DNA of 64,000 bases from Planctomycetota bacterium. GTDB taxonomy: Bacteria > Planctomycetota > Phycisphaerae > SM23-33 > FEN-1343. This document shows, one piece after another, positions 40,338 through 57,470 of the stretch. The notes beneath the pieces were generated by a model. It saw only the letters and a list, made by a program, of their open reading frames with translations. It was not told where the DNA came from and searched no databases. The stretch's first letter is position 1; each line of letters starts with the position of its first letter. The translations under genes were made by a program, and so were the position numbers. The DNA is taken from the NCBI GenBank assembly GCA_012514895.1, contig JAAYZK010000188.1, forward strand, positions 25 to 64,024, in the 5' to 3' direction.

Positions 40338-41573
40338 CTATCGCCGGCCGGCGAGGCGCTGGTGGGGGCGGAGGCGGGGCGGGTCGGCGGTCTGGCCGGC
40401 CCAGAATCTCAGCAGGTCGGGATCGACCGTCACGAACGCCGGCACGTGGGCCGCCACGCAGTGCAGGGCGCCGCCCAGGCGGATGAGGGAGTCGACGTTG
40501 ATCGGAACGATCTGCCACGTCGGAAGCAGCCGCCTGTACAGGTCCAGCACCTGCCGCTCGACGGCCGGGTCGACGTCGGAGTAGGAGGGGACCAGCAGGA
40601 CGCCGTTGGCGAAGATGACGTTGGTGTAGCTGCGCCACACGCCGTCACCGTTGGCAGGCATGGGGACGCGGTAGACCTTCAGGGGCCCTTTGCTGGTGGG
40701 CAGCCCGCTGAGCCGTTCGGCCGCCTGCTCGAGGATGAAGGCGTTGATGGGGTCCTCGGCGGCGTCGCACTGGGCGACGACGGCGACGTCGGGGGCCGTG
40801 AACGTCACGAACATGTCGGCGTGCTCGGTCTCCTCCCCGTCCAGCGGGCGCAGGTTGACCCAGGTCCTGACGCGGAAGAGGTACTGCAGCAGGACGCGGA
40901 TGTGTTCCTCGCCGTAGCCGCGGTCGATGTTGGAGTCGACCAGGGCGCTGGTGGTGACGCACAGCCCGTCGCCGTTGTTGATGAAGTTGCCCCCGTCCAG
41001 GCGGAGCGGCACCGGCGTGGCGTCCAGGCCGAACTGCCAGCCCAGCCACGCCGGGGCGATGTCCTCGGCCGCCGCCTCGGTGTCGTAGATGCCCTGGGCG
41101 TACTCGGTGTCGATGATCTCGACGGTCCCGTCGTCCTGGCGGACGAACAGGGGGCCGAAGTCCCGGGCCCACATCGTCCGCGCCGGGCTGATCACGAAGG
41201 TCACGGCATCGGCGGGGACGCCCTTGTCGCTGAGCAGCTTGCGGGCGATCTGGCGGTGCAGGTCGCCGGGCACCAGCACGATCAGGCGCACGCGGGTGTG
41301 GGTCGCGGCGACCAGCGTGGCGAAGACCTCCCCGTGCTGGGCGATCAGTTCGCCCCCGCCGAGGATGAGGGCCGACTGCGGCTGGAACTCGCCGGCCACG
41401 CCGGCGACCGGATCGAGAGGGGCGATCGCCTCGCGTGCGGCGGCGCCCGCGACGGGGCCGCCGGTGCGATCCGCGTCGGCCGCGAAGACCGCAAGGGCCA
41501 TGCACACCGGCACAGCCAGCGCCGCCCCCAGCCGGCGCCGTCTTCCAAGGCTCATCCTGTCAGGCGTATCCAT
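40338..41573 (-). CDS. Agmatine deiminase / peptidylarginine deiminase family protein with predicted signal peptide
   Basis: 'WARDFGP', 'LDGGN', 'TEHADM', 'SYTN', catalytic 'GGALHC'. Start reassigned to ATG 41573 (GAAGGA RBS); N-terminus 'RRRRLGAALAVPVCMALAVFAADA'. Confidence 0.85.
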   Translation of the reverse strand: MDTPDRMSLGRRRRLGAALAVPVCMALAVFAADADRTGGPVAGAAAREAIAPLDPVAGVAGEFQPQSALILGGGELIAQHGEVFATLVAATHTRVRLIVLVPGDLHRQIARKLLSDKGVPADAVTFVISPARTMWARDFGPLFVRQDDGTVEIIDTEYAQGIYDTEAAAEDIAPAWLGWQFGLDATPVPLRLDGGNFINNGDGLCVTTSALVDSNIDRGYGEEHIRVLLQYLFRVRTWVNLRPLDGEETEHADMFVTFTAPDVAVVAQCDAAEDPINAFILEQAAERLSGLPTSKGPLKVYRVPMPANGDGVWRSYTNVIFANGVLLVPSYSDVDPAVERQVLDLYRRLLPTWQIVPINVDSLIRLGGALHCVAAHVPAFVTVDPDLLRFWAGQTADPPRLRPHQRLAGRR

Positions 41574-41634
41574 GGGTGTTCCTTCGGCTCCCGCCGGGCC
41601 GCGGCCCGCCGGCGCGGACGCCGCGGCCGCTCCG

Positions 41635-42951
41635 TCATTCCGCCGCGTCGAGCGGGACGACCGGCGGAATCGGCTTGATGAAGTCCTGGCGAAGGCTGTA
41701 CGTGTACGCGCCCTGGCTGGGCACCAGCAGCACGTCGCCCGGCGCGATGCTTTCGCCCCAGTAGGCATACCCCCAGATGTCGTGCGGCGTGCACAGGCAG
41801 CCGTGGACGTCGCAGGCCTGCTCGGCGAGGGCCGGGCGGGTCAGGTTGACCACGGGGAAGAAGTCGGTCTCGAACCGCTCCCAGCCGACGGCGTTGGTGC
41901 CGGCGTCGGTGATGACCAGGTCCGGCGCCTTGCGGTCGACCACGCGCATCAGCAGGTGCATCCCGTCGTTGCACAGCCAGCGGCCCGGCTCCAGGCAGAT
42001 CGTCGCGCCCTCCAGCGGCAGGTGCTCGGCCGCAGCGGCGGCCAGCGCCGCCGCGAAATCCTCGATGGGCGTGCCCGCCTTCCACCATCGCCGCGGGTCG
42101 GGCAGGGCGTCGGCCGACAGCATGTGCCGCAGCGTCCCGGCGGGCGTAGCGGCGGTCTGGAGCCACTCGCCCGACTCGGGCCAGTAGCCGCCGCCGATGT
42201 CCACGAATTCCAGGGCCGACACCTGCCGGGCGGGCAGCGCCCGCAGCGTGCGGCCCAACTGGCCGAGGAAGTCCGTCTGGGCGGACGGCCGGAGGTTCCA
42301 GCTCGTGTGGAACTGCAGCCCCCGCAGGTCCACGTGTCCGCAGCGGTCCGCCTCGTCGAAGAAGCGTCCCAGGTCGGCCAGGGGGATGCCGAACTTCCGC
42401 CAGAACCCCCGCGGGTCGACCGTCAGGCGCACGCCGGCACGGACCGTCGCCCCGCGGGCGGACGCCAGGGCCTCCAGCCGGGCCAGCTCGGAGAAACTGT
42501 CGATGAGGATCGTCACCCGCCCGGCGTGCCCGACCGCCAGGGCCAGTTCCGCGTCGGTCTTGCCCGGACCGCTGAAGATGATCGACTCGGCCGGGAGGTC
42601 CAGGGCCACCTGCAGTTCGCGCCCGCTGGAGACGTCCAGCCCCAGCCCGCACGCCACCATGACAGCGGCGACGTCCGGGCAGTTGTTGCTCTTCATCGCG
42701 TAGTAGACGCGGGTCGGGCGGCCCATCGCGGCGGCGAACGCGTCGCTGAACCGCCGCGCCCGGTCGCGAAGGGCCTGGCGGTCCAGGACGTACAGCGGCG
42801 AGCCGTGGCGGCGCACCAGGGCCAGGTACGACTCGGCGCGGGCGACGTGGCGGGCCACCATCGACGCGATGGCCTCCGCCGGCACCTCCGGCAGCGGCTC
42901 GTTCATCGCAGCGGCCGCCTTGGCGAGCAGCGCGGCATGGGGATCGTTCAC
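41635..42951 (-). CDS. PLP fold-type III (Orn/DAP/Arg) decarboxylase family protein
   Basis: 'SPLYVLD', 'YYAMKSN' (PLP Lys), 'SGPGK', 'KFG', 'DIGGG', 'EPGR', 'GCLCTPHD', 'GAYT'. GTG start at 42951 overlaps the upstream TGA (GTGA). Confidence 0.88.
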   Translation of the reverse strand: MNDPHAALLAKAAAAMNEPLPEVPAEAIASMVARHVARAESYLALVRRHGSPLYVLDRQALRDRARRFSDAFAAAMGRPTRVYYAMKSNNCPDVAAVMVACGLGLDVSSGRELQVALDLPAESIIFSGPGKTDAELALAVGHAGRVTILIDSFSELARLEALASARGATVRAGVRLTVDPRGFWRKFGIPLADLGRFFDEADRCGHVDLRGLQFHTSWNLRPSAQTDFLGQLGRTLRALPARQVSALEFVDIGGGYWPESGEWLQTAATPAGTLRHMLSADALPDPRRWWKAGTPIEDFAAALAAAAAEHLPLEGATICLEPGRWLCNDGMHLLMRVVDRKAPDLVITDAGTNAVGWERFETDFFPVVNLTRPALAEQACDVHGCLCTPHDIWGYAYWGESIAPGDVLLVPSQGAYTYSLRQDFIKPIPPVVPLDAAE

Positions 42952-44210
42952 GCCGCGTCCTCCATGACCACCTGGACGCCGGCCAGCAGTTCCTCGCACT
43001 GGACCGCCACGGCGCGCTTGGGGTCCGGGCGGAAGATGATGAATCCCAGGACCCACAGGTCGTAATGCTCGGGCGGCAGGATGACGCGATGGCCCTTCTG
43101 GCGGATCAGCGTCACCTGGCAGACGCGGGGGTCGGCGGCGGCCTTGCGGGTGTCGATGTGGTGGATCGTGCCGCTCTGCGTGGCATGGATCCGGACAGCG
43201 ACGTGGCGTTTCCACCGGTTGGCGGGCGGCAGGTGGATGGGGCGTCCTTCGGCGACGTCCAGCGCCAGGCCGATCATGTCCACGTCGCCGGCGCGGAGGA
43301 TCAGGTCCGGCAGGCAGTCCCCGCCCGGGCGAGGGGCCAGTTCGAGCATCATCGGGCCTTCGGGCGTGACGATGAAGTCCGCCATGCACACCGAGCGGCT
43401 CAGCCCCACGGCGCGGGCGGCGCGCTGGAGGACATCGGTCAGGCGGGTGCGGCCCAGGCCGCTGGGCAGGCCGGCGGGAACCTCATAGCCGTGAATCGTG
43501 CCGAACGGGCCGCGCCGCAGGCGAACCTTCTTGGCCAGCCGCACGATCCGCAGCCCCTGTTCCTCCAGCAGGAAATCGCAGCTGTACTCGTCGCCGACGG
43601 CGTACTGCTCGGCGACGATCCGCTCGCGGGCGCCGGCGTACATGCGGTTGCCCGCCTGGCGGACCATCGCCTGCTGGATCGACGTGACGCCCGCCGCCGC
43701 CTCGTCGGGGCCGTTGCACAGGAAGACGTACTCGCTGCCCGAGCCGGTGGGGGGCTTCAGGACGCAGACGCCGCCGACGCGCTGTTGGAAGGCGACCGCC
43801 TCGGCGGCGGTGTGGATGATGGCGCCGTCGGGGCAGGGAACATCCGCCGCCCGCCAGACGCTCTTGCACTCGAACTTGTCGCGGCACAGCTCGACGGTGT
43901 CGAGGGAGGGGTAGGGAAGCTCCAGCGCCTGGGCGAGCTTGGCCGCCAGGGCGAGGGCTTCGCAGTCGTAGCAGGTGATGCCCCCCAGGCGGATGTCGTG
44001 GCGGCGCAGATGTGCGGTCAGGGCCCGGCGGACCCGCTGGGAGTTGCGCAGATCCTCCAGCAGTTCGGTCCGCTCATCCGGCGCCGGTTCGATCCCGCGG
44101 CTTCGCTCGGCCGGGTCGGTGACAAAGAGAGCACGCCCGGGCCACGTCCGGTCGATCCAATGGACGTAGTCCGTGGTGGTGCCGACCACGAGCACGCGCG
44201 TGTCAGGCAC
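42948..44210 (-). CDS. ATP-grasp ligase family protein
   Basis: 'CRDKFECK', 'VLKPPTGSGS', 'AEQYAVGDEYSCD', 'MLELAPRPGGD'. GTG start at 44210 overlaps the GNAT stop. Confidence 0.87.
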   Translation of the reverse strand: MPDTRVLVVGTTTDYVHWIDRTWPGRALFVTDPAERSRGIEPAPDERTELLEDLRNSQRVRRALTAHLRRHDIRLGGITCYDCEALALAAKLAQALELPYPSLDTVELCRDKFECKSVWRAADVPCPDGAIIHTAAEAVAFQQRVGGVCVLKPPTGSGSEYVFLCNGPDEAAAGVTSIQQAMVRQAGNRMYAGARERIVAEQYAVGDEYSCDFLLEEQGLRIVRLAKKVRLRRGPFGTIHGYEVPAGLPSGLGRTRLTDVLQRAARAVGLSRSVCMADFIVTPEGPMMLELAPRPGGDCLPDLILRAGDVDMIGLALDVAEGRPIHLPPANRWKRHVAVRIHATQSGTIHHIDTRKAAADPRVCQVTLIRQKGHRVILPPEHYDLWVLGFIIFRPDPKRAVAVQCEELLAGVQVVMEDAA

Positions 44211-45162
44211 GGCCGCGGAGGACCTCAGTCCGGTCGGAGGCGGTGTCGGCGCCGGCGTCATCGTTTCGCACCTGATACAGAGGGCGAGGCGTCAGGTGGA
44301 ACCGCTCTTTCCACCCGAAGTCGCCGCAGAGGAAATCCACCAGGTCAAAGCGCTGATGGCACGCCCAGTCCATGTGATGGAAGTTGATTACCTTGGCGAT
44401 CCCGGGCAGGGCCGGATCGGTTCCCCCGGCCAGGACCGTGTACGTGTTGCGGTACACCGCACCGATGTCGACGGCCGCGACGCGATCGCCGGCCAGGACC
44501 GTCGTGACCCGCAGCCAGCCCCGCTCGTGCAGAAAGGCCACCAGCGCCCGGAAGGACTCCAGGAACCGCCCGTCGGCGAAATACGATCGTTCCCCCAGCG
44601 ACGCCAGGTTCATCTCGAAGACCCTGTCGGCGTCGCGCAGGTCGTCGTGGCGGAAGCTCAGGCCGCCGCAGGCCAGCGCATCCATCTCGCGCTGAAGTTT
44701 CTTGCGGCTCTTGCCGGAGAAGCACTCGAAGTACCTGTCGAAGCTGTAGTTGTAGTCCGGCGGTCGGAACAGATACCCGATTTCGTCGACCGCCTCGTTC
44801 GCCGGCGCGGCGGGGAAGGACCCGGCCGTCAGGTAGCGCAGGTGCGCCGGTCGGGGGCAACCGGCGAGCAGGGCCTCGGTGACGTCGGGCGAGGCCGCGA
44901 CGATGCGGTTCTGTTCCAGCCAAGTCTTGCCGTGGTAGGTCTCGCCTGGGAAGCAGCCCCAGTAGCCGTGATCCTCGATGTCGCTCAGCGCCAGCAGTCC
45001 CTGGGGGGCCGACGGGCCGCCCGGGACGATGAACAGCGGGCGGTAGCGGTAGTGCCGATGAAAGCACAGCCGCACCTCCCACAGGTCGAACAACGTGGCC
45101 GTACCCACCAGGTGCTGCCACAGACGACCGCACGTCTCGATGTTGTCAATGACAGCGACCAT
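44203..45162 (-). CDS. GNAT-fold acyltransferase (Acetyltransf_6/FemAB-like)
   Basis: 'SFDRYFECFSGKSRKKLQRE', 'GWLRVTTV...RVAAV', 'PGIAKVINFHHM', 'VDFLCGDFGWKERF' (typical DFxxGxxxYK-like end). Confidence 0.78.
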   Translation of the reverse strand: MVAVIDNIETCGRLWQHLVGTATLFDLWEVRLCFHRHYRYRPLFIVPGGPSAPQGLLALSDIEDHGYWGCFPGETYHGKTWLEQNRIVAASPDVTEALLAGCPRPAHLRYLTAGSFPAAPANEAVDEIGYLFRPPDYNYSFDRYFECFSGKSRKKLQREMDALACGGLSFRHDDLRDADRVFEMNLASLGERSYFADGRFLESFRALVAFLHERGWLRVTTVLAGDRVAAVDIGAVYRNTYTVLAGGTDPALPGIAKVINFHHMDWACHQRFDLVDFLCGDFGWKERFHLTPRPLYQVRNDDAGADTASDRTEVLRGRA

Positions 45163-45166
45163 GAAG

Positions 45167-45556
45167 CTACTTCCTCAGCGTCACATGCATTGTGCTGGAC
45201 CGGCCGGCGAAGTACCGCTGGGCGAAGTCCCGGACGACGTCGGGGTCGTAGGGCTTGCAGCTGAACACGTCCAGGTAGGTGGCGTTGGTCAGGTTGGCGA
45301 AGTGGGCCGAGATCAGCGAGGTCTCGATCAACTGCACCATCGAGAAGCCGGCGACCTTCTCGTCTTCGCCGAAGTGGACCACCTGGGTCTCACCGAACCG
45401 CTTCATTTCGATGAGTTCGCACAGGTCGACCACGAACTGCTTGATGTAGTCGGCCGAGCGGATCAGGTCCGGATCGCAATCATAGATGTCGATGCTGGAC
45501 GCCACTCCCCAGACGCCCTGTTCGATGGCACTCTCCTTCACGGCTTGTCCATTCAT
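45167..45556 (-). CDS. speD: Pyruvoyl-dependent S-adenosylmethionine decarboxylase (SpeD) family proenzyme
   Basis: 'IDIYDCDP', 'VVHFG', 'GFSMVQLIETSLISAH', 'YLDVFSCK'; 129 aa; GAGGAG RBS. Confidence 0.85.
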   Translation of the reverse strand: MNGQAVKESAIEQGVWGVASSIDIYDCDPDLIRSADYIKQFVVDLCELIEMKRFGETQVVHFGEDEKVAGFSMVQLIETSLISAHFANLTNATYLDVFSCKPYDPDVVRDFAQRYFAGRSSTMHVTLRK

Positions 45557-45708
45557 CGCTACACTCCTCTGTCAGACGGATTTGGCCCGCCTGATCTACC
45601 TGTGGGTCCGCCGTCGGCGTCCCCGGGTCTCCGTATCCCGCAGCCAGTGGCCGTCACAGGGGCGGCACACCCGGCGTGGTATACGCCGCGCCGTTAGGGG
45701 GGCGTATC

Positions 45709-45723
45709 GCACACTGCGTGCCA
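45709..45723 (-). promoter_or_regulatory. Sigma54 (-24/-12) promoter of the speD operon
   Basis: Minus strand TGGCACGCAGTGTGC, i.e. TGGCAC-N5-GTGC with GG-N10-GC spacing, next to a sigma54 activator gene. Confidence 0.75.
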
Positions 45724-45838
45724 GAGAAATGCCAGAGGCCCGAAGAAATTCGATGCGGCGGTTTCTGGGCGATCTGCGCAAAAAATGCCGACCGGTTTCC
45801 GCAGACCGGCCACCTGAACCACCCCCGAAGGGCGATCT

Positions 45839-46009
45839 TCGGTATGCAGATACCGATTGTGGAGCGGCTTGGGAACCTCCACAATCCCTTGCAGTCCCGC
45901 CGGAGGAGCAGCCACGAAAAAACTGCTCAGGAAAGAGGAAAAGTCGCTTCCGTCCTCATGGTGTCGGTACGATAATGCCGAAATCTGCGGTCAGGTATCA
46001 GCGTACCGA
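45839..46009. promoter_or_regulatory. Three related palindromic boxes (TCGGTAy-N4-rTrCCGA), putative enhancer/operator sites
   Basis: tcggtatgcagataccga (45839-45856, perfect 7-bp arms), tcggtacgataatgccga (45964-45981) and caggtatcagcgtaccga (45992-46009). Confidence 0.55.
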
Positions 46010-46029
46010 TTTGATGGACTGGAGAGCTC

Positions 46030-47442
46030 ATGCTTCTGCGAACGATCGTGGCCGTCCGCGGCGGTCGCCTGCTTCGCTGCCTGTCGGAGCGGCTGCCGGC
46101 GCCGGACGTCGTCGTCGAGCGCGTCCGCCCCTCGGAGGGCGCGTGGGACCGGATCCTCCGCAAGGGCGGGGATGTCATCGTGGTCAGCGAATCGCTGATC
46201 CCCGACCCGCTGGAGCGCAGCATCAGTCTCCTCAACGACTTGCCGGAGATCCCCACGTCGGTCGTCATCACCCAGAGCTCCTCGCCCCAGACGCACGCGG
46301 ACCTGCTGGCGTGCGGGTGCGACACGGTCCTGTACGCCGCCCTGCCCGAGGACCAGCTCGTGGACGCCATCGACGCGACGATCGAGAATCGCCGCCAACT
46401 GGTCAGCCGCACGCTGGTCGATCACGGGGCCGGCCACCGCCCCAAGCTGGCCGATTTCGTCTCGGAAGGGCCCACGATGCAGATGTTCATGCAGGTCGTC
46501 CGCCGCGTGGTGCCCAGCAGCGCCACGTTGCTGCTGCTGGGGGAGACCGGTGTGGGCAAGGAGCACCTGGCCCGGGCGATCCACGCCGAGAGCCCCCGTT
46601 CGGGCGGCCCCTTCGTGGCCATCAACTGTGCGGCCCTGCCCGAGCAACTGCTGGAGAGCGAGCTGTTCGGCCACGAGGAGGGGGCTTTTACGGGCGCGAC
46701 CCGCAGCCGGCGGGGGGCCTTCGAGCTGGCCCACGGCGGGACGCTCTTCCTCGATGAGATCGGCGAGATGCCTTTGCACCTGCAGGCCAAGCTGCTGCGG
46801 GTCCTCCAGGACTTCGAGGTCCGCCGCGTGGGCAGCGAGCGCGGCGTCGAGGTCGACGTGCGGGTGATGGCGGCCTCCAACCGCAGCCTGAAGGATGAAT
46901 CCGAGGCCCACCGATTCCGCCAGGACCTCTACTACCGGCTCAGCGTCATCGAACTGGTCGTCCCGCCCCTGCGGGACCGCCCCGAGGACATTCCCGCGCT
47001 GGCCGGCGGATTCCTCGCACGCATCGGCCCCAAGATCGGCATCGACGTCCGGTCCATCGCCGCCGACGCCATGGAGAAGCTCTGCCAGTACGACTGGCCC
47101 GGCAACGTCCGCGAGCTGTCGAATGTCCTGGAGCGGGCCATGCTTCTGTGCGAAGGCGACCAGATCACCCTGGACGATCTGCCCGTGAGCATCACCGGCG
47201 CGCGGCCCAACTCCCACGCGTCGTCGGCCCCCTTCACCGCCGATCAGTGGCGGGGCAAGACGCTCCACGAGGTCACCGCCGCGGCGATCGAGCAGGTCGA
47301 GCGAGCCTACCTCGAGATGCTCCTGGGCGAGACCGGCGGACGGGTCGGCGACACCGCCCGGCGGGCGGGCATCCACCCGCGGGGCCTCTACAACAAGATG
47401 CGCAGGCACCGGCTGCGGAAAGAGGACTTCCGCCGGCGATAG
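46030..47442 (+). CDS. Sigma54-dependent enhancer-binding protein (degenerate receiver - AAA+ - HTH)
   Basis: Walker A 'GETGVGKE', 'ESELFGH..GAFTGA', '[12 protein letters not shown]', 'FRQDLYYRL', 'WPGNVREL', C-terminal Fis-type HTH. Confidence 0.95.
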
Positions 47443-47460
47443 ACGCCCGGCCTGCCGTCC

Positions 47461-47910
47461 TCAGTGCGCCGCCCCGCGCCTCCGCTCCAGTTGCCTGGCG
47501 TAGTCGATGCAGTACTTCGCCCAGGGCCGTGCACGCAACCTGCTGATCGAAATGGGCTTGCCCGTCGCCAAGCAGATGCCGTACGTCCCGTCCTCGATGC
47601 GGGCCAGCGCCTCTTCGACCTCGCGGAGTTCCGCCCGCTGGCTGCTGTAGAGCCCGGCGTTCAACTCGATGTGCTCGGTATCGATGGCCTGTTCGGGCAG
47701 CTCGGAATTGTCGCGGCTGCCCTCCATCGAACGGCTGACCGCCGAACTGATGTCCGTGATATGGCCCAGCAGTTCCCGTCGCTTCTCGATCAGGCGCTCG
47801 CGCAACTCCTCGAGGTCCCCGGGAGCCAGTTCCGTTTCGACTGCCGCCTTGCGACCGGACCGGGACGCCCGCGATGCTGACGCGCTGCTGTCTGACAACT
47901 TCGAAGTCAT
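47461..47910 (-). CDS. DksA/TraR family protein (two-Cys variant)
   Basis: Coiled coil followed by 'ELREVEEALARIEDGTYGICLATGKPISISRLRARPWAKYCIDYA'. Confidence 0.85.
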   Translation of the reverse strand: MTSKLSDSSASASRASRSGRKAAVETELAPGDLEELRERLIEKRRELLGHITDISSAVSRSMEGSRDNSELPEQAIDTEHIELNAGLYSSQRAELREVEEALARIEDGTYGICLATGKPISISRLRARPWAKYCIDYARQLERRRGAAH

Positions 47911-48139
47911 GCTTCCCTCACCTTGACTGAAGGGACCAACTCTTTTCCGATACGCCGCTCAAGGGGGAGACGCTGCTGACGCCCCCCCTGCGTCGGCCCT
48001 CCGACACACGGCAGGTTCTCTGCCTGAGGCTATTCTAGCGCGGTGGCCGTTGCGAATTGGTCTTTCCCGGATTTCTCCCCCCCCCGGCCGTCCGCGCCGG
48101 CCGCCGACGGGGAGGAACGCTTCGCGGTTACGTTGACTC

Positions 48140-48155
48140 TGGCACAGGTTATGCT
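48140..48155 (+). promoter_or_regulatory. Sigma54 (-24/-12) promoter of the Re-citrate-synthase-like operon
   Basis: TGGCACAGGTTATGCT with GG-N10-GC spacing, about 105 bp upstream of ATG 48262. Confidence 0.75.
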
Positions 48156-48261
48156 TACTCCATTGCTCTGCCGCTCCCATGGTGCGGAGCGGGACAGCCG
48201 TGACAACCCCATTGACGCAGACGCCCCGGCGTGCGCGCCGGGTGCGCCAGGAGTTGCCCAG

Positions 48262-49647
48262 ATGGCCCTGCATTACGACAAGGCGACGCGTTCGTTCTAC
48301 ACCAACCTGCGGCCCCCGGCCCTGCAGGACGTCGATGAACCCAACCTGTACCGGGACATCTTCCCGTACAGCCAGTTTCCCAAGATCCCCTTCAGCCACG
48401 AGCGGGTGCCGACGACCATCCCCGAAGAGACCTGGCTGACCGACACGACCTTCCGCGACGGCCAGCAGGCGCGGGCGCCGTACACAGTCGAACAGACCGT
48501 GCAGTTGTTCACCTTCCTGCACCGGCTGGCCGGCCCGGCGGGGCTGATCCGCCAGAGCGAGTTCTTCCTGTATTCCCAGAAGGACCGCCAGGCGGTGGAA
48601 AAGTGCATGGAACTGGGGTTCGAGTACCCCCAGATCACCGGCTGGATCCGCGCCGTCAAGAGCGACTTCGCCCTGGTCAAGGACATGGGGCTGAAGGAAA
48701 CCGGCATCCTGACGTCCTGCAGCGATTACCACATCTTCCTGAAGCTCCGCCGCAACCGTCGCGAGGCCATGGAGATGTACCTGGACATCGTCCGGACCGC
48801 CCTGGACAGCGGCATCGCGCCGCGCTGCCATTTCGAGGACATCACCCGGGCCGACTTCGACGGCTTCGTCATCCCCTATGCCGCCGAGCTGATGAAGCTG
48901 GCCGAGCAGTACGACACGCCGGTCAAGATCCGCATGTGCGACACGCTGGGCTTCGGCGTCCCCTACGTCGGGGCCGACCTGCCCCGCTCGGTCGCCAAGA
49001 TCACCTACTACCTCCACCAGCAGGCCGGCGTGCCCAGCGAGTGGCTGGAGTGGCACGGGCACAACGACTTCCACAAGGTGCTCGCCAACGCCACCACCGC
49101 CTGGCTGCACGGCTGCTGCGCCGCCAACGGCACGCTGCTGTCGATCGGCGAGCGGACCGGCAACCCGCCCATCGAGGGTCTGCTGGTCGAGCACGCGATG
49201 CTGTGGGGCGAGGGCAAGGGCGTCGACTACGCCGCGATCACCGAACTGGCCGATTACTACCGCGTCGAGATCGGCTACGACATCCCCCCGCTCTACCCGC
49301 TGGTCGGCAGGGACTTCAACGTCACCCGCGCCGGCATCCACGCCGACGGCATGCTCAAGAACGAGGAGATCTACAACCCCTTCGACACCGAGCGGATCCT
49401 GCGCCGGCCGCCCCGCGTCGCGCTGACCGACAAGAGCGGCGTCGGCGGGGTCTGCCTGTGGGTCCAGGAGAACTACGAACTCGACGGGGAACTGGCCAAG
49501 GCCGATCCGCGGGTGCAGGCCATTGCCGCCTGGATCGACGCGCAGTACGCCGCCGGCCGCATTGCCGCGATGAGCGACGAGGAAATGGCCGATAAGGTAA
49601 CCGAGGTCTTCGGCGAGGAAGCCCGCCGCAGGCCTGAGACGCTGTAG
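48262..49647 (+). CDS. DRE-TIM metallolyase, Re-citrate synthase-like (isopropylmalate/homocitrate synthase superfamily)
   Basis: 'DTTFRDGQQ', 'HGHNDF', 'IGERTGN', 'AGIHADG'. N-terminal 'EPNLYRDIFPY' extension and no LeuA regulatory domain. AGGAG RBS before ATG 48262. Confidence 0.8.
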   Translation: MALHYDKATRSFYTNLRPPALQDVDEPNLYRDIFPYSQFPKIPFSHERVPTTIPEETWLTDTTFRDGQQARAPYTVEQTVQLFTFLHRLAGPAGLIRQSEFFLYSQKDRQAVEKCMELGFEYPQITGWIRAVKSDFALVKDMGLKETGILTSCSDYHIFLKLRRNRREAMEMYLDIVRTALDSGIAPRCHFEDITRADFDGFVIPYAAELMKLAEQYDTPVKIRMCDTLGFGVPYVGADLPRSVAKITYYLHQQAGVPSEWLEWHGHNDFHKVLANATTAWLHGCCAANGTLLSIGERTGNPPIEGLLVEHAMLWGEGKGVDYAAITELADYYRVEIGYDIPPLYPLVGRDFNVTRAGIHADGMLKNEEIYNPFDTERILRRPPRVALTDKSGVGGVCLWVQENYELDGELAKADPRVQAIAAWIDAQYAAGRIAAMSDEEMADKVTEVFGEEARRRPETL

Positions 49648-49670
49648 GCGGCAGGACGAACGGCAACAGG

Positions 49671-49777
49671 GAATATCGAACAAGGAACGTCGAATGTCGA
49701 AGTGAACGGCCAACGACCGCCGGCAGACCCTGCGGCACCCGCTTGCTTCGAGATTCGATGTTCCTTGTTCAGTATTC
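49671..49777. repeat. 32-bp imperfect inverted repeat built from GAA-led heptamers
   Basis: Left arm gaatatcgaacaaggaacgtcgaatgtcgaag (49671-49702) matches the reverse complement of 49746-49777, gaatactgaacaaggaacatcgaatctcgaag, at 28/32 positions. Confidence 0.85.
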
Positions 49778-49875
49778 GATAGTCGTCGCTGCCAGCGTGA
49801 GTTAGGGGGTATTCGACGATCAGGGGGGACAGCAACCATCTTCGCCACGGATATCCGGGGCAGGCGGCGCTTGTC

Positions 49876-50463
49876 GTGGTCGCCCACCCGGATGATGAAA
49901 CCATCTGGTGCGGCGGGCTGATCCTGCGCCGCCCGGACTGGCAGTGGACTGTCCTGAGCCTCTGCCGCGCCGACGACGACGACCGGCGGGAGAGGTTCGG
50001 CCGCGCCTGCCGTCGCCTGGGGGCGCGGGCCATCATCTCCGACCTCGACGACGGCGCCCCCCTGGCGCCCCTGGACGGGCCCAGGGACATCGGCCGGCGG
50101 ATCCTCCGCCATGCGGGCGGCCGGAGGTGGGGGCTGGTCCTCACCCACGGCGCCAACGGGGAGTACGGCCACCAGCGCCACCGGGAGGTTCACGACGAGG
50201 TCCTGCGCCTCGCCGCCGGCGGCGAACTGCCCCACGAGGACCTGTGGACCTTCGCCTACGACTGCGCCGCGGCGACCGGCCGGTGCGTCCCGCAGGCCGA
50301 TGCGACCGTCCGCATCGACCTGACCGAAGCCCAGCTCGCCGGCAAGCGCCGCATCATCCACGACACGTACGGATTCGGGGAGGAAGCCTTCGAGTGCCGC
50401 GCCTGTATCAGCCCGGAGGCCTTCCGCCGCCACAGCCCCGGTCCGCAGGGGGAACTGCCATGA
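49876..50463 (+). CDS. PIG-L/LmbE family deacetylase
   Basis: 'VAHPDDE', 'LTHGANGEYGH..H'. The true start is probably upstream (frame open back to 49801). Confidence 0.82.
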   Translation: MVAHPDDETIWCGGLILRRPDWQWTVLSLCRADDDDRRERFGRACRRLGARAIISDLDDGAPLAPLDGPRDIGRRILRHAGGRRWGLVLTHGANGEYGHQRHREVHDEVLRLAAGGELPHEDLWTFAYDCAAATGRCVPQADATVRIDLTEAQLAGKRRIIHDTYGFGEEAFECRACISPEAFRRHSPGPQGELP

Positions 50464-51662
50464 AGGTTCTCGTGCTCTATGACTATCCACCCGCCCCGGG
50501 CGGCCTGGCCACCCAGGGGGACCTGCTCTACCGGGGACTGCGGGAGATCGGCGTCGATGCCCATCCCGCCCACTACGAGTCGCCGCAGGAGAAGGAGTGG
50601 TACTACCGCTGGCTGGCCCCCGACGTCGTCGTCGGCGTCGGCTACTGGGGCCACGCGCCCCACATCATCCTGCACCCGCAGCGCTTCGGCGTGCGGGCCG
50701 TGCCGTGGGTCGTTGCCGACGGGTACGTCGCCAACTACCAGGAGGTGTTCAACAAGCTGCCGCTCATCCTGGCGACCTCCAACTGGGTCCGCGACGTCTA
50801 CAAGCGGGACGGCCTGGACGTGTCGAACTTCAAGATCCTGCCGGTCGGCTGCGACACAGACGCGTTCGTCCCTCGCGACCGCGACGACCCGAAGGTCAGG
50901 ACCATCCGCGAGTCGCTGGGCATCGCCCCCGACGAGATCATGATCCTCACCGTCGGCGGCGACGCCGCCAGCAAGGGCGGGCAGGAGGTCATGCAGGCCC
51001 TGGCGATGATCGACCACAAGGCGCCGGACTGGAAGTACGTCTGCAAGGTCTGGCCCCAGGTCCGCACCGAGCACCAGAACCTCGCCGACATGCAACTGGC
51101 GGCCCAACTGGGGATCGACAAGAAGGTGATCTTCGCCACCAGCCGCATCAGCCGCGGGTTCATGCCCTACCTGATGGCGGCCTGCGACATCTACGCCGCC
51201 CCGTCGCGGCTGGAGGGGTTCGGCATGATCCAGGTCGAGGCCAACGCCTGCGGCAAGCCCGTCATCGGCATCAAGGCGATGGGCCTGCTGGACACCATGG
51301 TCCACGGCGAAACCGCCTTCCTGGCCGACGTCGCCCAGGAGATCCGCGCCCGCGAGACGATCGTCGGGGCCGACCAGGGCTACAAGGAAGGCCACCGCGT
51401 GATCTTCAAGCGGCCGCGGACCGTGGACTTCCGCGCCAGCATCCATGACATCGCCAACTACCTGATGGACCTGATGACCGACGCGGCCCTGCGGAAGACC
51501 ATGGGCGAGGCGGGGCGAAAGCGCGTCGTCGAACTGTTCGACTACCGCGCGGTCGCCAGGCAGTTCGTGGACATCACCACCAGGACACTGGGCAGGCGGA
51601 AGCGAAGCAATGGCACTCAACGACAACGGCCAGGTCGAACGGGCGAAACGCGCGGCGATTGA
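50460..51662 (+). CDS. Glycosyltransferase family 4 (GT-B)
   Basis: ATGA overlap with the PIG-L gene; 'PGGLATQ', 'GCDTDAF.P', 'SKGGQE', 'APSRLEGFGMIQVEANACGKPVI', 'GEAGRKRV...FDY'. Confidence 0.9.
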   Translation: MKVLVLYDYPPAPGGLATQGDLLYRGLREIGVDAHPAHYESPQEKEWYYRWLAPDVVVGVGYWGHAPHIILHPQRFGVRAVPWVVADGYVANYQEVFNKLPLILATSNWVRDVYKRDGLDVSNFKILPVGCDTDAFVPRDRDDPKVRTIRESLGIAPDEIMILTVGGDAASKGGQEVMQALAMIDHKAPDWKYVCKVWPQVRTEHQNLADMQLAAQLGIDKKVIFATSRISRGFMPYLMAACDIYAAPSRLEGFGMIQVEANACGKPVIGIKAMGLLDTMVHGETAFLADVAQEIRARETIVGADQGYKEGHRVIFKRPRTVDFRASIHDIANYLMDLMTDAALRKTMGEAGRKRVVELFDYRAVARQFVDITTRTLGRRKRSNGTQRQRPGRTGETRGD

Positions 51663-52806
51663 GGTGCTCCTGAGCAACCTGCACGGGCCTTACCGCGGGC
51701 TGCCCCGCACCGCCGGGTGGGGCTACCCCGAACCCTACACGCGGGACCTGCTCATCTCCGGCCTGGGGTTCCTTGTCTCCGGCGAGCAGCGGCTGATCGC
51801 GTCGCTGCGGCGGGTCCTGGAGACCCTGGCGGCCAACCAGACCCCGCGGGGGCACATCCCTTCCCTGGTCCACGATCCCGAGGACCGCGGCGCCAGCGAC
51901 ACGACCCCGCTGTTCCTGCTGATTCTGGCGATCTACCGCCGGGCCGCCGGCGAGGGCGATTTCCTCGCCGACGCCGCCGCCAGGGCCCTGACGTGGATGG
52001 AGTACGCCAGCCCCGCCGACCGGGCGCTGGTCGCCCAGCTTCCCACGACCGACTGGCGCGACGAGCAGGCTGTCACGGGCTTCGGCCTGTACGTCAACGC
52101 GCTGACGTACGCCTTCCTCCGCCTGCACGGCCGCCGTGAGCGTGCCGACCAACTGGCCGAGATGATGTGCCGCTTCACGATCACCGCCGAGGACGAGGCC
52201 AGCCGGCGGGTGCACGAGGGGCTGACGCTCAAGCGCAAGCCCTATTACGCGATGTGCTCGTTCAAGATCTTCTCCAGCGAGCGGTTCGACCTGCTGGGCA
52301 ACAGCCTGGCCATCCTGACGGGCATCGCGCCGCTGTCGCGGGCCAAGGCGATCCTCGCCTGGATCGAACGGGAATGCCAGGTGATGCGGGCCCGCGGGGA
52401 CCTGGCGGTGGACCTGTCGCCGAACTTCTTCCCCTTCGTCCGCCCCGGCGACCCCGAGTGGTCCCGCCGCTACGAACTGCACAACCGCCCGGGGATCTAC
52501 CATAACGGGGGCGTCTGGCCCTTCGTCAGCGGCTTCCACATCGCCGCCATGGTCGCCGCCGGCCGCATGCACCTGGCCCGCCGCAAGCTGGCCGTCCTGA
52601 CTGAACTGGTCCGGCGCCCCAAAGACCCCAGCCTCGACTACGGTTTCAACGAGTACCTCCAGGCCCAGGACGGCCACCCCCGCGGGCAGGACTGGCAGAC
52701 CTGGTCGGCCGCCATGTACCTCTACGCCGCCGCCTGCGTCCAGCAGGGGCGCACGCCCTTCTTCGACGAGGTCCGGGCGATCGGGGGGCCGGGCAACCCG
52801 TGCTGA
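51610..52806 (+). CDS. (alpha/alpha)6 glycoside hydrolase, GH100 (alkaline/neutral invertase)-like
   Basis: 'YTRDL', 'ASDTTPLF', 'TTDWRDE', 'FDLLGNSLAIL', 'YHNGGVWPF', 'QTWSAAMYL'. Confidence 0.72.
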   Translation: MALNDNGQVERAKRAAIEVLLSNLHGPYRGLPRTAGWGYPEPYTRDLLISGLGFLVSGEQRLIASLRRVLETLAANQTPRGHIPSLVHDPEDRGASDTTPLFLLILAIYRRAAGEGDFLADAAARALTWMEYASPADRALVAQLPTTDWRDEQAVTGFGLYVNALTYAFLRLHGRRERADQLAEMMCRFTITAEDEASRRVHEGLTLKRKPYYAMCSFKIFSSERFDLLGNSLAILTGIAPLSRAKAILAWIERECQVMRARGDLAVDLSPNFFPFVRPGDPEWSRRYELHNRPGIYHNGGVWPFVSGFHIAAMVAAGRMHLARRKLAVLTELVRRPKDPSLDYGFNEYLQAQDGHPRGQDWQTWSAAMYLYAAACVQQGRTPFFDEVRAIGGPGNPC

Positions 52807-52967
52807 GCGCGGCCCCGCATCGTGTCCGTCGGTCGTCTCGCCACCGCCCGGCCCGCATCTGTGCTCTTGCGGGACGCGTTGGGATCCGGCACTATGGCGG
52901 GGCATCGCCGCGCCGGCAGAGTCGTTTCGGGCCAGGAGCGCCGGCGGCAGACCCGGAAGGAGCGACC

Positions 52968-54200
52968 ATGGTTGGCAGCAAGGGCAGGAGCACTGCGTCG
53001 GAGGCCGCACGGGCGTTGGACCAGGGGCGGGGCATCCTTCGCCTGGCGCCGGCGTGGGTGCCGCGGTCGTTCTGCGTGCCGGGCCGGCGGATCAAGTTGC
53101 ACCCGGACGACTACTACGCGTACGGCGGCGTGCGGGGGGGGATCGACGAGCGGTGGTTCGCCTCGACCACGCCGGCCGACAACGGGCCGCTGACCAGCGA
53201 AAACGAGGGGCTCAGCCAGATCGTCGTCGAGGACGGCCGGACTGTCCGGCGGGTGCTGCTCCGCGACGCGGCGGCCGAACTGAAAGGGGCGCTGATCGGC
53301 GATCGGTTGTGGAACCAGTACGGCCGCTGGCCGATGTACTCCAAGTTCTTCGACAACATGGGCGCGCTGCCGCACCACGTGCACCATCGCGACGAGCACG
53401 CCGCCGCGACCGGCCAACTCGGCAAGCCCGAGGCGTATTACTTTCCGCCGCAGGTCAACAATCACGGCGGCGATTTCCCCTACACCTTCTTCGGCCTGGA
53501 GCCCGGCACGACGCGCGAGCAGGTGCGCGAATGCCTGGTGAACTTCTCCAAGGGCGACAACCGGCTGACCAACCTGTCCCGCGCCTACCGCCTGCGGCCG
53601 GGAACCGGGTGGAACGTGCCCCCGGGCGTCCTGCACGCGCCGGGCAGCCTGTGCACGTACGAGCCCCAGAAGGCCTCCGACGTCTTCGCAATGTACCAGT
53701 CGCTGGTGGGCGACCAGGTCATCCCCGAGGAACTGCTGTGGAAGAACACCCCGCCGGAGAAGGTCGGCGACGTCGACCACCTGCTGGAGGTGCTGGACTG
53801 GGAGGAGAACGTCGATCCGCGTTTCGTCGAGCGCCACTTCATGGCGCCCCGGCCGGTGCGGGACGTGGCCGAGATGGAGGCCCAAGGGTATGTCGAGCAC
53901 TGGATCTGCTACCTCTGCAACGCCTTCAGCGCCAAGGAACTGACGGTCCTGCCGGGCCGCACCGTCACGATCCGCGACGGCGGGGCGTACGGGATGATCA
54001 TGATGCAGGGGCACGGCACGATGGGCGTCTGGCCGATCGAGACGCCGGCCCTGATCCGTTTCGGCCAGTTGACGCACGATGAGTACTTCGTGTCCGAGCA
54101 GGCCGCCCGGGAGGGCGTGACGATCGTGAACCTTTCGCCGAGCGATCCGATCGTGATGCTCAAGCACTTCGGACCGGAGAATCCCGAGCTGGCGGTATAG
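52968..54200 (+). CDS. Cupin-fold protein resembling type I phosphomannose isomerase
   Basis: 'PHHVHH', 'GKPEAYYF', 'VPPGVLHAPG', 'YEPQKASD'. Start at ATG 52968 after GAAGGAG. Confidence 0.6.
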   Translation: MVGSKGRSTASEAARALDQGRGILRLAPAWVPRSFCVPGRRIKLHPDDYYAYGGVRGGIDERWFASTTPADNGPLTSENEGLSQIVVEDGRTVRRVLLRDAAAELKGALIGDRLWNQYGRWPMYSKFFDNMGALPHHVHHRDEHAAATGQLGKPEAYYFPPQVNNHGGDFPYTFFGLEPGTTREQVRECLVNFSKGDNRLTNLSRAYRLRPGTGWNVPPGVLHAPGSLCTYEPQKASDVFAMYQSLVGDQVIPEELLWKNTPPEKVGDVDHLLEVLDWEENVDPRFVERHFMAPRPVRDVAEMEAQGYVEHWICYLCNAFSAKELTVLPGRTVTIRDGGAYGMIMMQGHGTMGVWPIETPALIRFGQLTHDEYFVSEQAAREGVTIVNLSPSDPIVMLKHFGPENPELAV

Positions 54201-54227
54201 GCAACGCCGGAAAGAGGCGGCAGAACC

Positions 54228-56339: not shown

Positions 56340-56441
56340 ACCGCCGCCAGATGCGCAGAAACCCATTACGACATCGGGTGCGGGGGCTGTTGCCTGGATG
56401 TTCCGATCTGCCGGGCGGAGGCCGGTGAAGGGAGGTCGCTG

Positions 56442-57470
56442 ATGGGTGGTCGCCTGCGGTTGGCCGTCATGGGGCCTGGGATCTACTGGAACAAGGCGCA
56501 TCGTCCGGCGCTGGCCCGGCGGGACGACGTGGAGGTCGTCGCGTTCTGCGCCTCCAGCGACCGCCGGCGTGCGGAGGTGGCGGCGGCCTTCCCGGGCCGC
56601 CCGTTCTACACGGACGCCGACGCCTTCCTGGCCGAGGTCGCCGCCGATGCGGTGCTGCTGACCCTGCCGCTGCCGCTGAACGGCCCGATGGCCGCGCGGG
56701 CCCTGGAGGCCGGGCATGACGTCATCGTGGAGAAGCCCCTGGCCCGGTCGGCCGCCGAAGCCTTCGCCCTGGCCAGCCGGGCCGAGGCGGAGGGGCGCCA
56801 GTTGATGGTGGCCGAGCAGTTGGCCTATGCGCCGATCCTGGCGGAGATCCGGGCGAGGCTCGACGCCGGGGCGATCGGCCGGCCCGTCGTGTTCGACATG
56901 GTCACCCACATCCGCCTGGACGCCTCCCACCCCGACGGGTACGGCCGCGGCTGGCGGAAGGAGGCCGACTTCCCCCTGGGCGCCCTGTTCGACGGGGGCG
57001 TTCACCAGATCGCCATCCAGTCCCGCCTGTTCGGGCCGCACCGCCGGGTGTACGCCAGGGGGACCTCCCTGCGCGAGGGGTTCGGCGAGTTCGACCACGT
57101 CCTGATGCACTTCGCGTTCGACGGCGGCTTCTGCGGCACGTTCAGCCACGCCGGCAGCATCGACGGGCCGCGCAACCACTTCCACATCCACGGGACCGAA
57201 GGGCTGATCGACGTCGAGGGCGACGCCTTCACCCTCCTTCGCCCGTCCGCCGCGCCGCAGCGCGTCGTCGTCGAGGGCGACGACGCCCGCACCACGATGT
57301 GGACCCACCTGCTGGCGCGCCTCCGCGACGGCGCCCCGCCGGCCTACTCTGCCTTCGACGCCGCCGGCGACGTCGCGACGCTCGAGGCGGTGGCCGCATC
57401 GTGCCGCACGGGCCGGTCCGTGGACATCGGGCCGGGCGAGGCGCCAGGCCCCGCCGATCGCCCGTGCTGA
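56442..57470 (+). CDS. Gfo/Idh/MocA family oxidoreductase
   Basis: 'LAVMGPG', 'ALEAGHDVIVEKPLA', 'GALFDGGVHQI', 'IHGTEG'. Confidence 0.92.
   Translation: MGGRLRLAVMGPGIYWNKAHRPALARRDDVEVVAFCASSDRRRAEVAAAFPGRPFYTDADAFLAEVAADAVLLTLPLPLNGPMAARALEAGHDVIVEKPLARSAAEAFALASRAEAEGRQLMVAEQLAYAPILAEIRARLDAGAIGRPVVFDMVTHIRLDASHPDGYGRGWRKEADFPLGALFDGGVHQIAIQSRLFGPHRRVYARGTSLREGFGEFDHVLMHFAFDGGFCGTFSHAGSIDGPRNHFHIHGTEGLIDVEGDAFTLLRPSAAPQRVVVEGDDARTTMWTHLLARLRDGAPPAYSAFDAAGDVATLEAVAASCRTGRSVDIGPGEAPGPADRPC

Follow-up and report, generated by a model that had tools for sequence, protein, structure and literature searches.

Two autonomous enzyme cassettes in a candidate mosaic stress-response island of a planctomycete genome

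Mycothiol (MshA/B/C/D) and bacillithiol (BshA/B/C) are made by the pairing of a GT4 glycosyltransferase with a PIG-L deacetylase, followed by a ligase and a transferase of the GNAT family, and these pathways resemble a 12.5-kb gene island that lies at positions 40,338 to 52,806 of the DNA analyzed here, a stretch of 64,000 nucleotides from contig JAAYZK010000188.1 of a Planctomycetota bacterium (assembly GCA_012514895.1, a 4.9-Mb bin of 504 contigs, 95% complete and with 8.4% contamination), referred to as the window. The island differs from both pathways in that its ligase is an ATP-grasp enzyme and not MshC or BshC (no MshC-like gene was found among the Pfam matches of the cluster), its GNAT protein is a tandem, Fem-type enzyme, two decarboxylases are added, and the GT4/PIG-L and ligase/GNAT pairs belong to separable modules. 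A first-pass annotation of this DNA had described two divergent operons around a sigma-54 activator gene as the two arms of one pathway. By Pfam search and inspection of start codons, on which our gene calls are based, and by a motif scan, all eleven genes and both sigma-54 sites were found at the places it gave, although a DksA/TraR-like gene between the activator gene and the right promoter had been missed. Its statement that the set matches no known pathway in full also stands, since no protein of the island reaches any NCBIfam equivalog cut-off. Our reading, held with moderate confidence, is that the locus is a mosaic stress-response island made of co-regulated but autonomous modules that are inherited separately.

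The left arm begins with four tightly coupled genes on the minus strand, denoted here as module A, which encode a SpeD-like pyruvoyl decarboxylase with the fold of class-1b S-adenosylmethionine decarboxylase (AdoMetDC; 45167-45556; Pfam AdoMet_dc, 79.6 bits), a tandem-GNAT transferase of the Fem type (44203-45162; Acetyltransf_6), an ATP-grasp ligase of the L-amino-acid-ligase type (42948-44261; ATP-grasp_4) and a fold-III pyridoxal phosphate (PLP) decarboxylase (41635-42951; Orn_Arg_deC_N and Orn_DAP_Arg_deC). The genes are joined, in this order, by a 4-nt gap, an overlap of 8 or 59 nt and a GTGA overlap; the true start of the ligase may be GTG 44210, and its orthologues align only from residue 17-22 on. 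One genome per species was scanned with an alignment of ATP-grasp orthologues, yielding 264 relatives, and the neighborhoods of the best 80 were compared with all window proteins by tblastn. The GNAT and PLP decarboxylase genes were each present in 79 of these 80 loci and the SpeD-like gene in 59, always in the order of the window. Some of the SpeD-like misses correspond to contig edges, and nine SpeD-less loci (L055, L069, L092, L094, L102, L105, L106, L115 and L121) carry a Peptidase_C39-like protein of about 250 residues after the PLP decarboxylase. According to the record titles, from which the taxa of related loci were taken, the 80 loci span about ten phyla: the majority belong to Thermodesulfobacteriota or "delta proteobacteria", 18 to Planctomycetota, and others to Nitrospirota, Acidobacteriota, Zixiibacteriota, Omnitrophota, Krumholzibacteria, Hydrogenedentota, Ignavibacteriales and Verrucomicrobiota. 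The carriers include the cultured, non-pathogenic sulfate reducers Desulfosarcina alkanivorans PL12 and Desulfospira joergensenii DSM 10085. The PIG-L/GT4/GH100-like trio of the right arm is not beside module A in 77 of the 80 loci, and a GH100-like relative was found in none of the five complete genomes with module A. On this comparative basis, the left arm is best described as a self-contained cassette.

A similar picture was obtained for the right arm. Its trio, denoted module B and encoded on the plus strand, comprises a PIG-L/LmbE-family de-N-acetylase (49876-50463; Pfam PIG-L, 34.6 bits), a retaining glycosyltransferase of the GT4 type (50460-51662; Glycos_transf_1) and a GH100-like/MGH1-like (alpha/alpha)6 glycoside hydrolase (51610-52806; Glyco_hydro_100, MGH1-like_GH and GDE_C, over its C-terminal part only). 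Among 400 genomes of the phylum, 67-100% complete, GH100-like orthologues are present in eight, all with the trio intact and six of them without the left cassette; ATP-grasp orthologues (E<1e-50) are present in five, and only two genomes (G143 and G319) have both, with the cassettes on separate contigs. A metagenome scan with the GH100-like protein returned at least 593 relatives. The best 80 of these loci contain the GT4 gene in 75 cases, at 65-76% identity, and the PIG-L gene in 59, PIG-L always preceding GT4, in loci whose GC content ranges from 34 to 66%; any module A, HMGL or PAD gene was found in 0 of the 80. Genes that recur beside the trio encode GH130 (16 loci), a 777-residue protein of the GT4 type (15 loci), Usp, a P-type ATPase, an AI-2E transporter and PvlArgDC. 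The trio, as far as these neighborhoods tell, is a second autonomous cassette. Since each cassette is overwhelmingly found alone, the two cannot be the obligatory halves of one pathway. The gene-neighborhood comparison that the first-pass annotation had suggested as a check thus came out in two ways: each cassette is conserved by itself, but the arms are co-located only in a few planctomycete loci.

The other enzyme genes of the island do not follow either cassette. In front of the trio stands an HMGL-like gene (48262-49647, plus strand; Pfam HMGL-like), likened to Re-citrate synthase in the first-pass annotation, whose product scores 127.5 bits against nifV (cut-off 462.9) and has citramalate synthase (3ble) as its nearest solved chain, with isopropylmalate and homocitrate synthases also near. 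By family membership, it is a 2-oxoacid/acetyl-CoA condensing enzyme of the homocitrate/citramalate/isopropylmalate synthase family, and it is an accessory paralogue. A housekeeping citrate synthase or LeuA was rejected as its identity, because the genome has, at other places, a canonical citrate synthase gene and two HMGL genes with stronger matches, this one being its third HMGL gene. Orthologues occur in 47 of the 400 phylum genomes, and none of the 11 loci examined adjoins PIG-L, DksA or activator genes; a constant partnership with module B was also discarded, as the gene is unlinked to the trio in both phylum genomes and metagenome loci. The 228-nt gap between the HMGL-like and PIG-L genes contains a long imperfect palindrome (49672-49778, plus strand) that resembles repetitive extragenic palindromic or miniature inverted-repeat transposable elements and has a predicted fold of -77.4 kcal/mol (z -7.8). 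Related copies were found on contigs C46, C115 (two) and C234 of the same genome, and its arms are partly kept in L050, the closest relative of the locus. This position, together with the copies on other contigs, fits a junction between modules. L050 derives from an uncultured Planctomycetales bacterium, its ATP-grasp ligase is 82% identical to that of the window, and its gene order is the same except that no MscS match was found.

At the far end of the left arm, 61 nt after the PLP decarboxylase gene, is a gene of the PAD_porph family (40338-41573, minus strand; 140.5 bits; start ATG 41573, preceded by GAAGGAA). Its reported likeness to agmatine deiminase was upheld at the family level but not at the equivalog level: the protein scores 65.3 bits against aguA (TIGR03380; cut-off 381.8), and its N-terminus combines RRRR with a hydrophobic stretch in the manner of a twin-arginine signal, as read from the translation without a program. 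A cytoplasmic AguA was rejected on these two grounds, and the protein appears to be exported. A PAD-like gene adjoins module A in L050 (79% identity) and in none of the other 79 relative loci; a 41% identical orthologue in genome G016 has a 10/10 sigma-54 site of its own. Judged by this distribution, the PAD-like gene is specific to this lineage and was added behind the left cassette. The DksA/TraR-like gene (47461-47910, minus strand; Pfam zf-dskA_traR), convergent with the activator gene, encodes a protein that scores 73.8 bits against NCBIfam DksA_like (cut-off 105), is 76% identical in L050 and has 36-40% identical relatives downstream of module A in L063 and L070. The HMGL-like and DksA-like genes are lineage-specific additions as well. 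Of the four cysteines of the zinc finger, the DksA-like protein keeps only two (C-x2-T ... C-x2-Y), as read from its translation; we take it to resemble the zinc-independent DksA paralogues.

With regard to the chemistry of module A, the relevant precedents are the Fem-type GNATs, namely Orf11/Sba18 of streptothricin analogues, FemX, PacB and VlmA. In the available text of a 2026 review (PMC12945691), enzymes of this double-GNAT type are described as aminoacyl-tRNA-dependent transferases that join an amino acid to a free amine, and Orf11 as one that aminoacylates an amino sugar. The model of the window protein (predicted local distance difference test, pLDDT, 90.4) has a double-GNAT fold, which is best matched by this group: the aminoacyl-tRNA-dependent peptide synthases Sbb17/Sba18, one of them bound to streptothrisamine, FemX and A-PGS/MprF, followed at lower rank by acetyl-CoA-dependent glucosamine N-acetyltransferases. 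These matches are moderate, with template modeling (TM) scores of 0.5-0.65 and sequence identities of 11-19%. An Atlas structure search names the protein FemAB_like, and a search against the sequences of the Protein Data Bank (PDB) gave no matches. Fold similarity suggests that the tandem GNAT is probably dependent on aminoacyl-tRNA. None of the described Fem-type pathways, however, has the context found in the window, that is, two decarboxylases, an ATP-grasp ligase and sigma-54 control.

A second set of precedents is provided by butirosin (BtrI/J/K) and by rhizoferrin and staphyloferrin B (FslA/FslC and SbnG/SbnH), in which an amino acid, once attached by a ligase, is the substrate of a fold-III PLP decarboxylase. 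The nearest solved chains of the window decarboxylase are the N-citrylornithine decarboxylase 7kh2 (FslC), LysA and BtrK; in contrast to those pathways, its cassette has neither a carrier protein nor an IucA/IucC-type synthetase. Scores fall short of the cut-offs for lysA (TIGR01048, 148.6 versus 297.9 bits) and FslC (70.9 versus 500). A housekeeping LysA was rejected for this protein, which is below the TIGR01048 cut-off, and the true LysA (450 bits) is encoded on contig C303. Together with the placement of the canonical citrate synthase and two further HMGL proteins outside the island, this shows that the island genes are accessory paralogues and not housekeeping ones. The nearest solved chain of the ATP-grasp protein is the L-amino acid ligase BL00235 (3vot, E 4e-12). 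Leaving the order of steps aside, these families suggest a decarboxylated pseudo-peptide or an aminoacyl-amine as the product of module A.

As for module B, the GT4 protein has MshA (3c4q), sucrose-phosphate synthase (6kih) and the BshA-type enzymes 2jjm and 3mbo as nearest solved chains, with E ~1e-12, yet it scores 72.9 against a cut-off of 462.5 for MshA (TIGR03449) and 43.9 against 273.7 for BshA (TIGR03999). The nearest solved chains of the GH100-like protein are alkaline/neutral invertases (E 3e-7), and no PDB sequence was matched by the PIG-L protein.

The question of whether the two cassettes share a product arises from the few loci in which they meet. Among the 80 module A loci, module B is adjacent only in L050 and in L109, the latter also from Planctomycetota. 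In L109, a divergent activator gene, a candidate upstream activating sequence (UAS) with one mismatch and a sigma-54 site stand ahead of a tightly packed array of eleven genes: SpeD, GNAT, ATP-grasp, decarboxylase, orf347, PIG-L, GT4, GH100-like, a Ser/Thr kinase, CorA and MscS. A locus of the same record set, L067, carries module A, orf347 and the kinase without module B, so that the latter behaves as an insertable block. The metagenome contig L155 carries part of an activator (59% identical) with a UAS-like palindrome and a sigma-54 site, and after them orf937, the genes of an M28 peptidase and a seven-transmembrane (7TM)-transglutaminase, and that of an ATPgrasp_ST ("sugar-transfer associated") ligase, which directly precedes the PIG-L gene of module B. 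Adjacency of this kind is seen in three layouts, those of window/L050, L109 and L155, of which the last has another type of ATP-grasp; each stands behind an orthologous activator. Genome G016 (locus L139, G016:C28:14000-33999) has a sister-type activator with a different helix-turn-helix (HTH) and no module A; five 10/10 TGGCAC-N5-TTGC sites were found in its 20 kb, one directly before the PAD_porph orthologue and one upstream of a GH130-PIG-L-GT4-GH100-like array. As the cassettes are adjacent in a few planctomycete loci, in one case as a single 11-gene operon, co-regulation in this lineage is plausible. On a quick tree of ATP-grasp proteins, the window and L050 stand beside L109 and L067 (SH-aLRT, the Shimodaira-Hasegawa-like approximate likelihood ratio test, 82), next to a TetR-type clade and apart from the main activator-type clade.

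Some further observations were made at these loci. The 347-residue product of orf347 (L109 6768-7811) shows weak P-loop (DUF1611_C/CbiA) similarity, and orthologues with 57-93% identity occur in L067, L063, L084, L155 and L178. At L155 14321-19274, a second sigma-54 motif is followed by orf93, an orf347 orthologue, PvlArgDC, a deoxyhypusine-synthase-like gene and an arginase-family gene, a homospermidine-type set beside module B. Two small unannotated open reading frames (ORFs) lie behind the sigma-54 site that adjoins the activator in L139. On a Pirellulales contig, L057 149-331 encodes a 61-residue match to the GH100-like C-terminus (52% identity) just upstream of TetR and module A, a fragment that may be a remnant of module B.

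One alternative is that both arms make a single mycothiol-like conjugate, in which GT4 would form a GlcNAc-glycoside, perhaps on an acceptor supplied through the HMGL-like enzyme, PIG-L would free the amine, the ATP-grasp ligase and/or GNAT would aminoacylate it, and the decarboxylases would trim the product. The MshA- and BshA-type relatives of GT4 agree with such a scheme, as do the streptothrisamine-bound enzymes and glucosamine N-acetyltransferases matched by GNAT and the activity of Orf11 on an amino sugar in the available text of the review cited above. The single operon of L109, the "sugar-transfer associated" ligase placed directly before PIG-L in L155 and the orf347 and CorA orthologues found beside both A and B loci point in the same direction. 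The distribution of the modules speaks against it: module B is missing from 77 of 80 loci and from five of five complete genomes that have A, and module A from all 80 metagenome loci and from six of the eight trio-bearing phylum genomes, while the co-occurrence within family f53 is, by our count, no higher than shared ancestry predicts. Moreover, the HMGL-like gene is unlinked to B elsewhere, and GT4 stays below the cut-offs of both MshA and BshA. The earlier proposal of one pathway in two arms retains from this comparison the adjacency in three layouts of one lineage, and we consider a single conjugate possible though not likely. Because ATP-grasp ligases of two families are repeatedly joined to GT4/PIG-L, and GNAT has amino-sugar-acylating relatives by fold, a lineage-specific aminoacylated glucosaminide, and with it a product shared by A and B in this lineage, is possible. 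A broader and more speculative version, which we regard as doubtful, is that module A represents an undescribed amine pathway of about ten phyla under a pseudo-receiver activator, coupled in one planctomycete lineage to GT4/PIG-L so as to yield a mycothiol-like aminoacyl-glucosaminide stress metabolite.

Returning to the reading of autonomous modules, their co-regulation depends on the sigma-54 apparatus. NtrC-family activators of divergent operons are AAA+ proteins with a GAFTGA motif and a Fis-type HTH that are associated with upstream palindromes and a -24/-12 promoter, and the activator gene of the island (46030-47442, plus strand; Pfam Sigma54_activat, 231.9 bits, AAA_lid_14 and HTH_8) fits this description: its product has an N-terminal receiver-like domain, a GAFTGA motif, whose columns are invariant across the orthologue alignment, and a Fis-type HTH. 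It differs from that family in that the acceptor position is mostly Ser among the orthologues (S53 in the window, by reading of the alignment and not by a program), in the lack of an adjacent partner kinase and in a score below every NCBIfam equivalog cut-off. The genome contains rpoN on contig C115 (Sigma54_DBD, 200.5 bits) and about 11 sigma-54 activators. Predicted -24/-12 promoters were located at 45709-45723 on the minus strand (TGGCACGCAGTGTGC), ahead of the left cassette, and at 48140-48154 on the plus strand (TGGCACAGGTTATGC), ahead of the right arm, each with one mismatch to the consensus. They are the only sites in the 64 kb with at most one mismatch to TGGCAC-N5-TTGC, a number not above chance (3.57 +/- 1.74 in shuffled sequences, with at least two in 90 of 100 shuffles), and the evidence therefore rests on position, orientation and conservation. 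Both motifs sit in the two spacers, each oriented toward its own operon, and both are kept in L050 amid otherwise diverged spacers, the right one as TGGCACGCCTTATGC.

The comparison of module A loci gave this evidence its weight on the left side. Of the 74 loci that could be evaluated, 40 encode, divergently upstream of the cassette, a full-length activator orthologue that includes the N-terminal domain and is 48-56% identical; the full-length orthologues beside the cassette in other phyla span 48-59%. Along the cassette strand, 37 of these 40 loci have a -24/-12-like motif, versus three of the 34 without the activator, and the reverse-strand control gave 4/40 and 3/34, respectively. In addition, footprinting of the window against L050 exposed palindromes of the form TCGGTA-N6-TACCGA. 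The window contains only three matches with at most two mismatches (45839-45856, 45964-45981 and 45992-46009), all of them between the activator gene and the left promoter, and two are conserved in L050. Such a palindrome occurs in the spacer between activator and cassette in 26 of 40 loci with the activator versus three of 31 without it, at a density of 1.51 per kb in spacers versus 0.019 per kb elsewhere (about 80-fold), and we infer that the palindromes are the upstream sites of the activator. In 22 of the 80 loci, a TetR-family gene directly upstream (e.g., L053 7826-8551 and L034 1648-2379) replaces the activator, and no -24/-12 motif is present; the type of regulator follows the clades of the quick ATP-grasp tree. 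Control of the left arm by sigma-54 and the activator is strongly supported, as far as comparison alone can do so.

The situation of the right arm is different. The right spacer (47911-48261) contains no TCGGTA-N6-TACCGA palindrome even when four mismatches are allowed, the left enhancers lie 2.1-2.3 kb from the right promoter with the DksA-like gene between them, and in none of 50 related loci does the 1 kb upstream of PIG-L contain a sigma-54 motif. Of the single regulon proposed in the first-pass annotation, the left arm was thus supported, but not the presence of the same enhancer at the right promoter. These facts, together with the number of activators encoded in the genome and the repeat hairpin that marks a junction inside the arm, are what would be expected if the right arm were unrelated, a glycoside or compatible-solute turnover operon controlled by another sigma-54 activator and placed here incidentally. 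However, module B stands behind orthologous activators in four architectures (window/L050, L109, L155 and G016), which would be unlikely for an unrelated neighbor; we therefore judge this explanation unlikely, and the repeated placement suggests that the local activator may also control the right arm. In the 5' leader of this arm, between the promoter and the start of the HMGL-like gene, an inverted repeat CCGCTC...GAGCGG at 48260-48300 is conserved in L050.

The SpeD-like protein has to be considered in the light of the neofunctionalized SpeD homologues reported by Li et al. in 2023 (PMC10407285). In the available text of that work, SpeD homologues from genomes without SpeE were shown to be arginine or ornithine decarboxylases. 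The window protein shares with them the small class-1b SpeD fold and the genomic setting: it is the product of the only AdoMet_dc gene of the genome, a search of the 95%-complete assembly for Spermine_synth (SpeE) gave no match, and it qualifies for that reason as an "anomalous" SpeD by the criteria given there. Its model (pLDDT 93.4) is best matched, in a Foldseek search, by the AdoMetDC proenzyme of T. maritima (1vr7, TM 0.78/0.84). A fold comparison was needed for this, as searches of PDB sequences with the single sequence and with a profile recovered no AdoMetDC chain, and the score for TIGR03330 is 28.4 bits against a cut-off of 75.65. The protein is unusually conserved: across 22 orthologues from several phyla, the mean column identity is 78%, with IETSLISAHFAN and FSC invariant. 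The homologues described in that text cluster with speE, speY, hss or casdh/casdc, in contrast to the window clade, which always stands before GNAT, ATP-grasp and PLP decarboxylase genes. That module A is ordinary polyamine synthesis, with SpeD as a true AdoMetDC or as an arginine/ornithine decarboxylase feeding putrescine and spermidine, would agree with the family and fold of this protein, the reassigned SpeE-less homologues, the downstream agmatine-deiminase-like gene and the homospermidine-type genes beside orf347 in L155, but it is very improbable, given that SpeE was not found, that an aminopropyl transferase, a homospermidine synthase and an agmatinase are all missing from the cassette, that the PAD-like protein is apparently exported and missing from 79 of 80 cassette loci, and that ATP-grasp and GNAT receive no mention in the available text of PMC10407285.

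The mosaic of autonomous modules could operate as follows. The receiver-like activator would bind the TCGGTA-N6-TACCGA palindromes and open the -24/-12 promoter of the four module A enzymes, which would carry out two amide-forming and two decarboxylating steps to give a small decarboxylated pseudo-peptide or aminoacyl-amine, polyamine-like or compatible-solute-like in nature. Module B would build a GlcNAc-type glycoside, remove its N-acetyl group and also hydrolyze it. In the present genome and in a few related planctomycetes, both modules would have been placed behind orthologous activators and would probably be co-induced, while in most organisms each would work alone. Several points weigh against this interpretation. 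The three independent layouts in which an ATP-grasp ligase is joined to PIG-L/GT4 agree better with a common amino-sugar conjugate than with co-regulation alone, and the proximity of the window and L050 to L109 and L067 on the quick tree means that these two layouts may share one origin. The right promoter has no enhancer motif and about 11 activators are available, so that its control by the local one is conjectural; the moderate TM scores of GNAT and the acetyl-CoA-dependent enzymes among its fold matches leave its donor uncertain; and the source bin carries 8.4% contamination.

What emerges from the comparison is a pair of very widespread cassettes built from familiar enzyme families, for which a literature search, with the supplements of PMC10407285 outside its scope, found no description of either module A or module B. 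For module A, the activator, palindrome and promoter offer a regulatory handle and there are cultured carriers, so that both what it makes and what induces it can be tested directly. If the SpeD-fold enzyme does have a new substrate, it would extend the recently recognized neofunctionalization of AdoMetDC, and if GNAT does use aminoacyl-tRNA, it would place a tRNA-dependent small-molecule pathway in primary or stress metabolism, well beyond the antibiotics of actinomycetes. The island is also an example of how physical proximity in a single genome can make a pathway look more unified than it is.

The surroundings of the island are in keeping with its composition. The window has a GC content of about 70%, and the GC content at third codon positions (GC3) of the island genes, 0.84-0.95, is like that of the neighboring genes. 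An Rfam search at E<=1 of positions 36000-57000 gave no matches, and hence no known riboswitch or leader is present there. The genes reported earlier as trehalose and mscS neighbors were confirmed by Pfam as TreT and MscS, which adjoin the left side of the island together with an amylase/DUF3459 gene, and the suggested stress or osmotic context recurs at related loci, where MscS, CorA, Usp and P-type ATPase genes are found as neighbors. On the right side, in the region 52800-57470, the GH100-like gene is followed on the same (plus) strand by an ORF without Pfam match (probable start ~52968, GC3 0.90), within which the L050 contig stops. It precedes genes for a GHL6/Glyco_hydro_42M-like protein and a Gfo/Idh/MocA oxidoreductase, and all three ORFs may extend the right operon.

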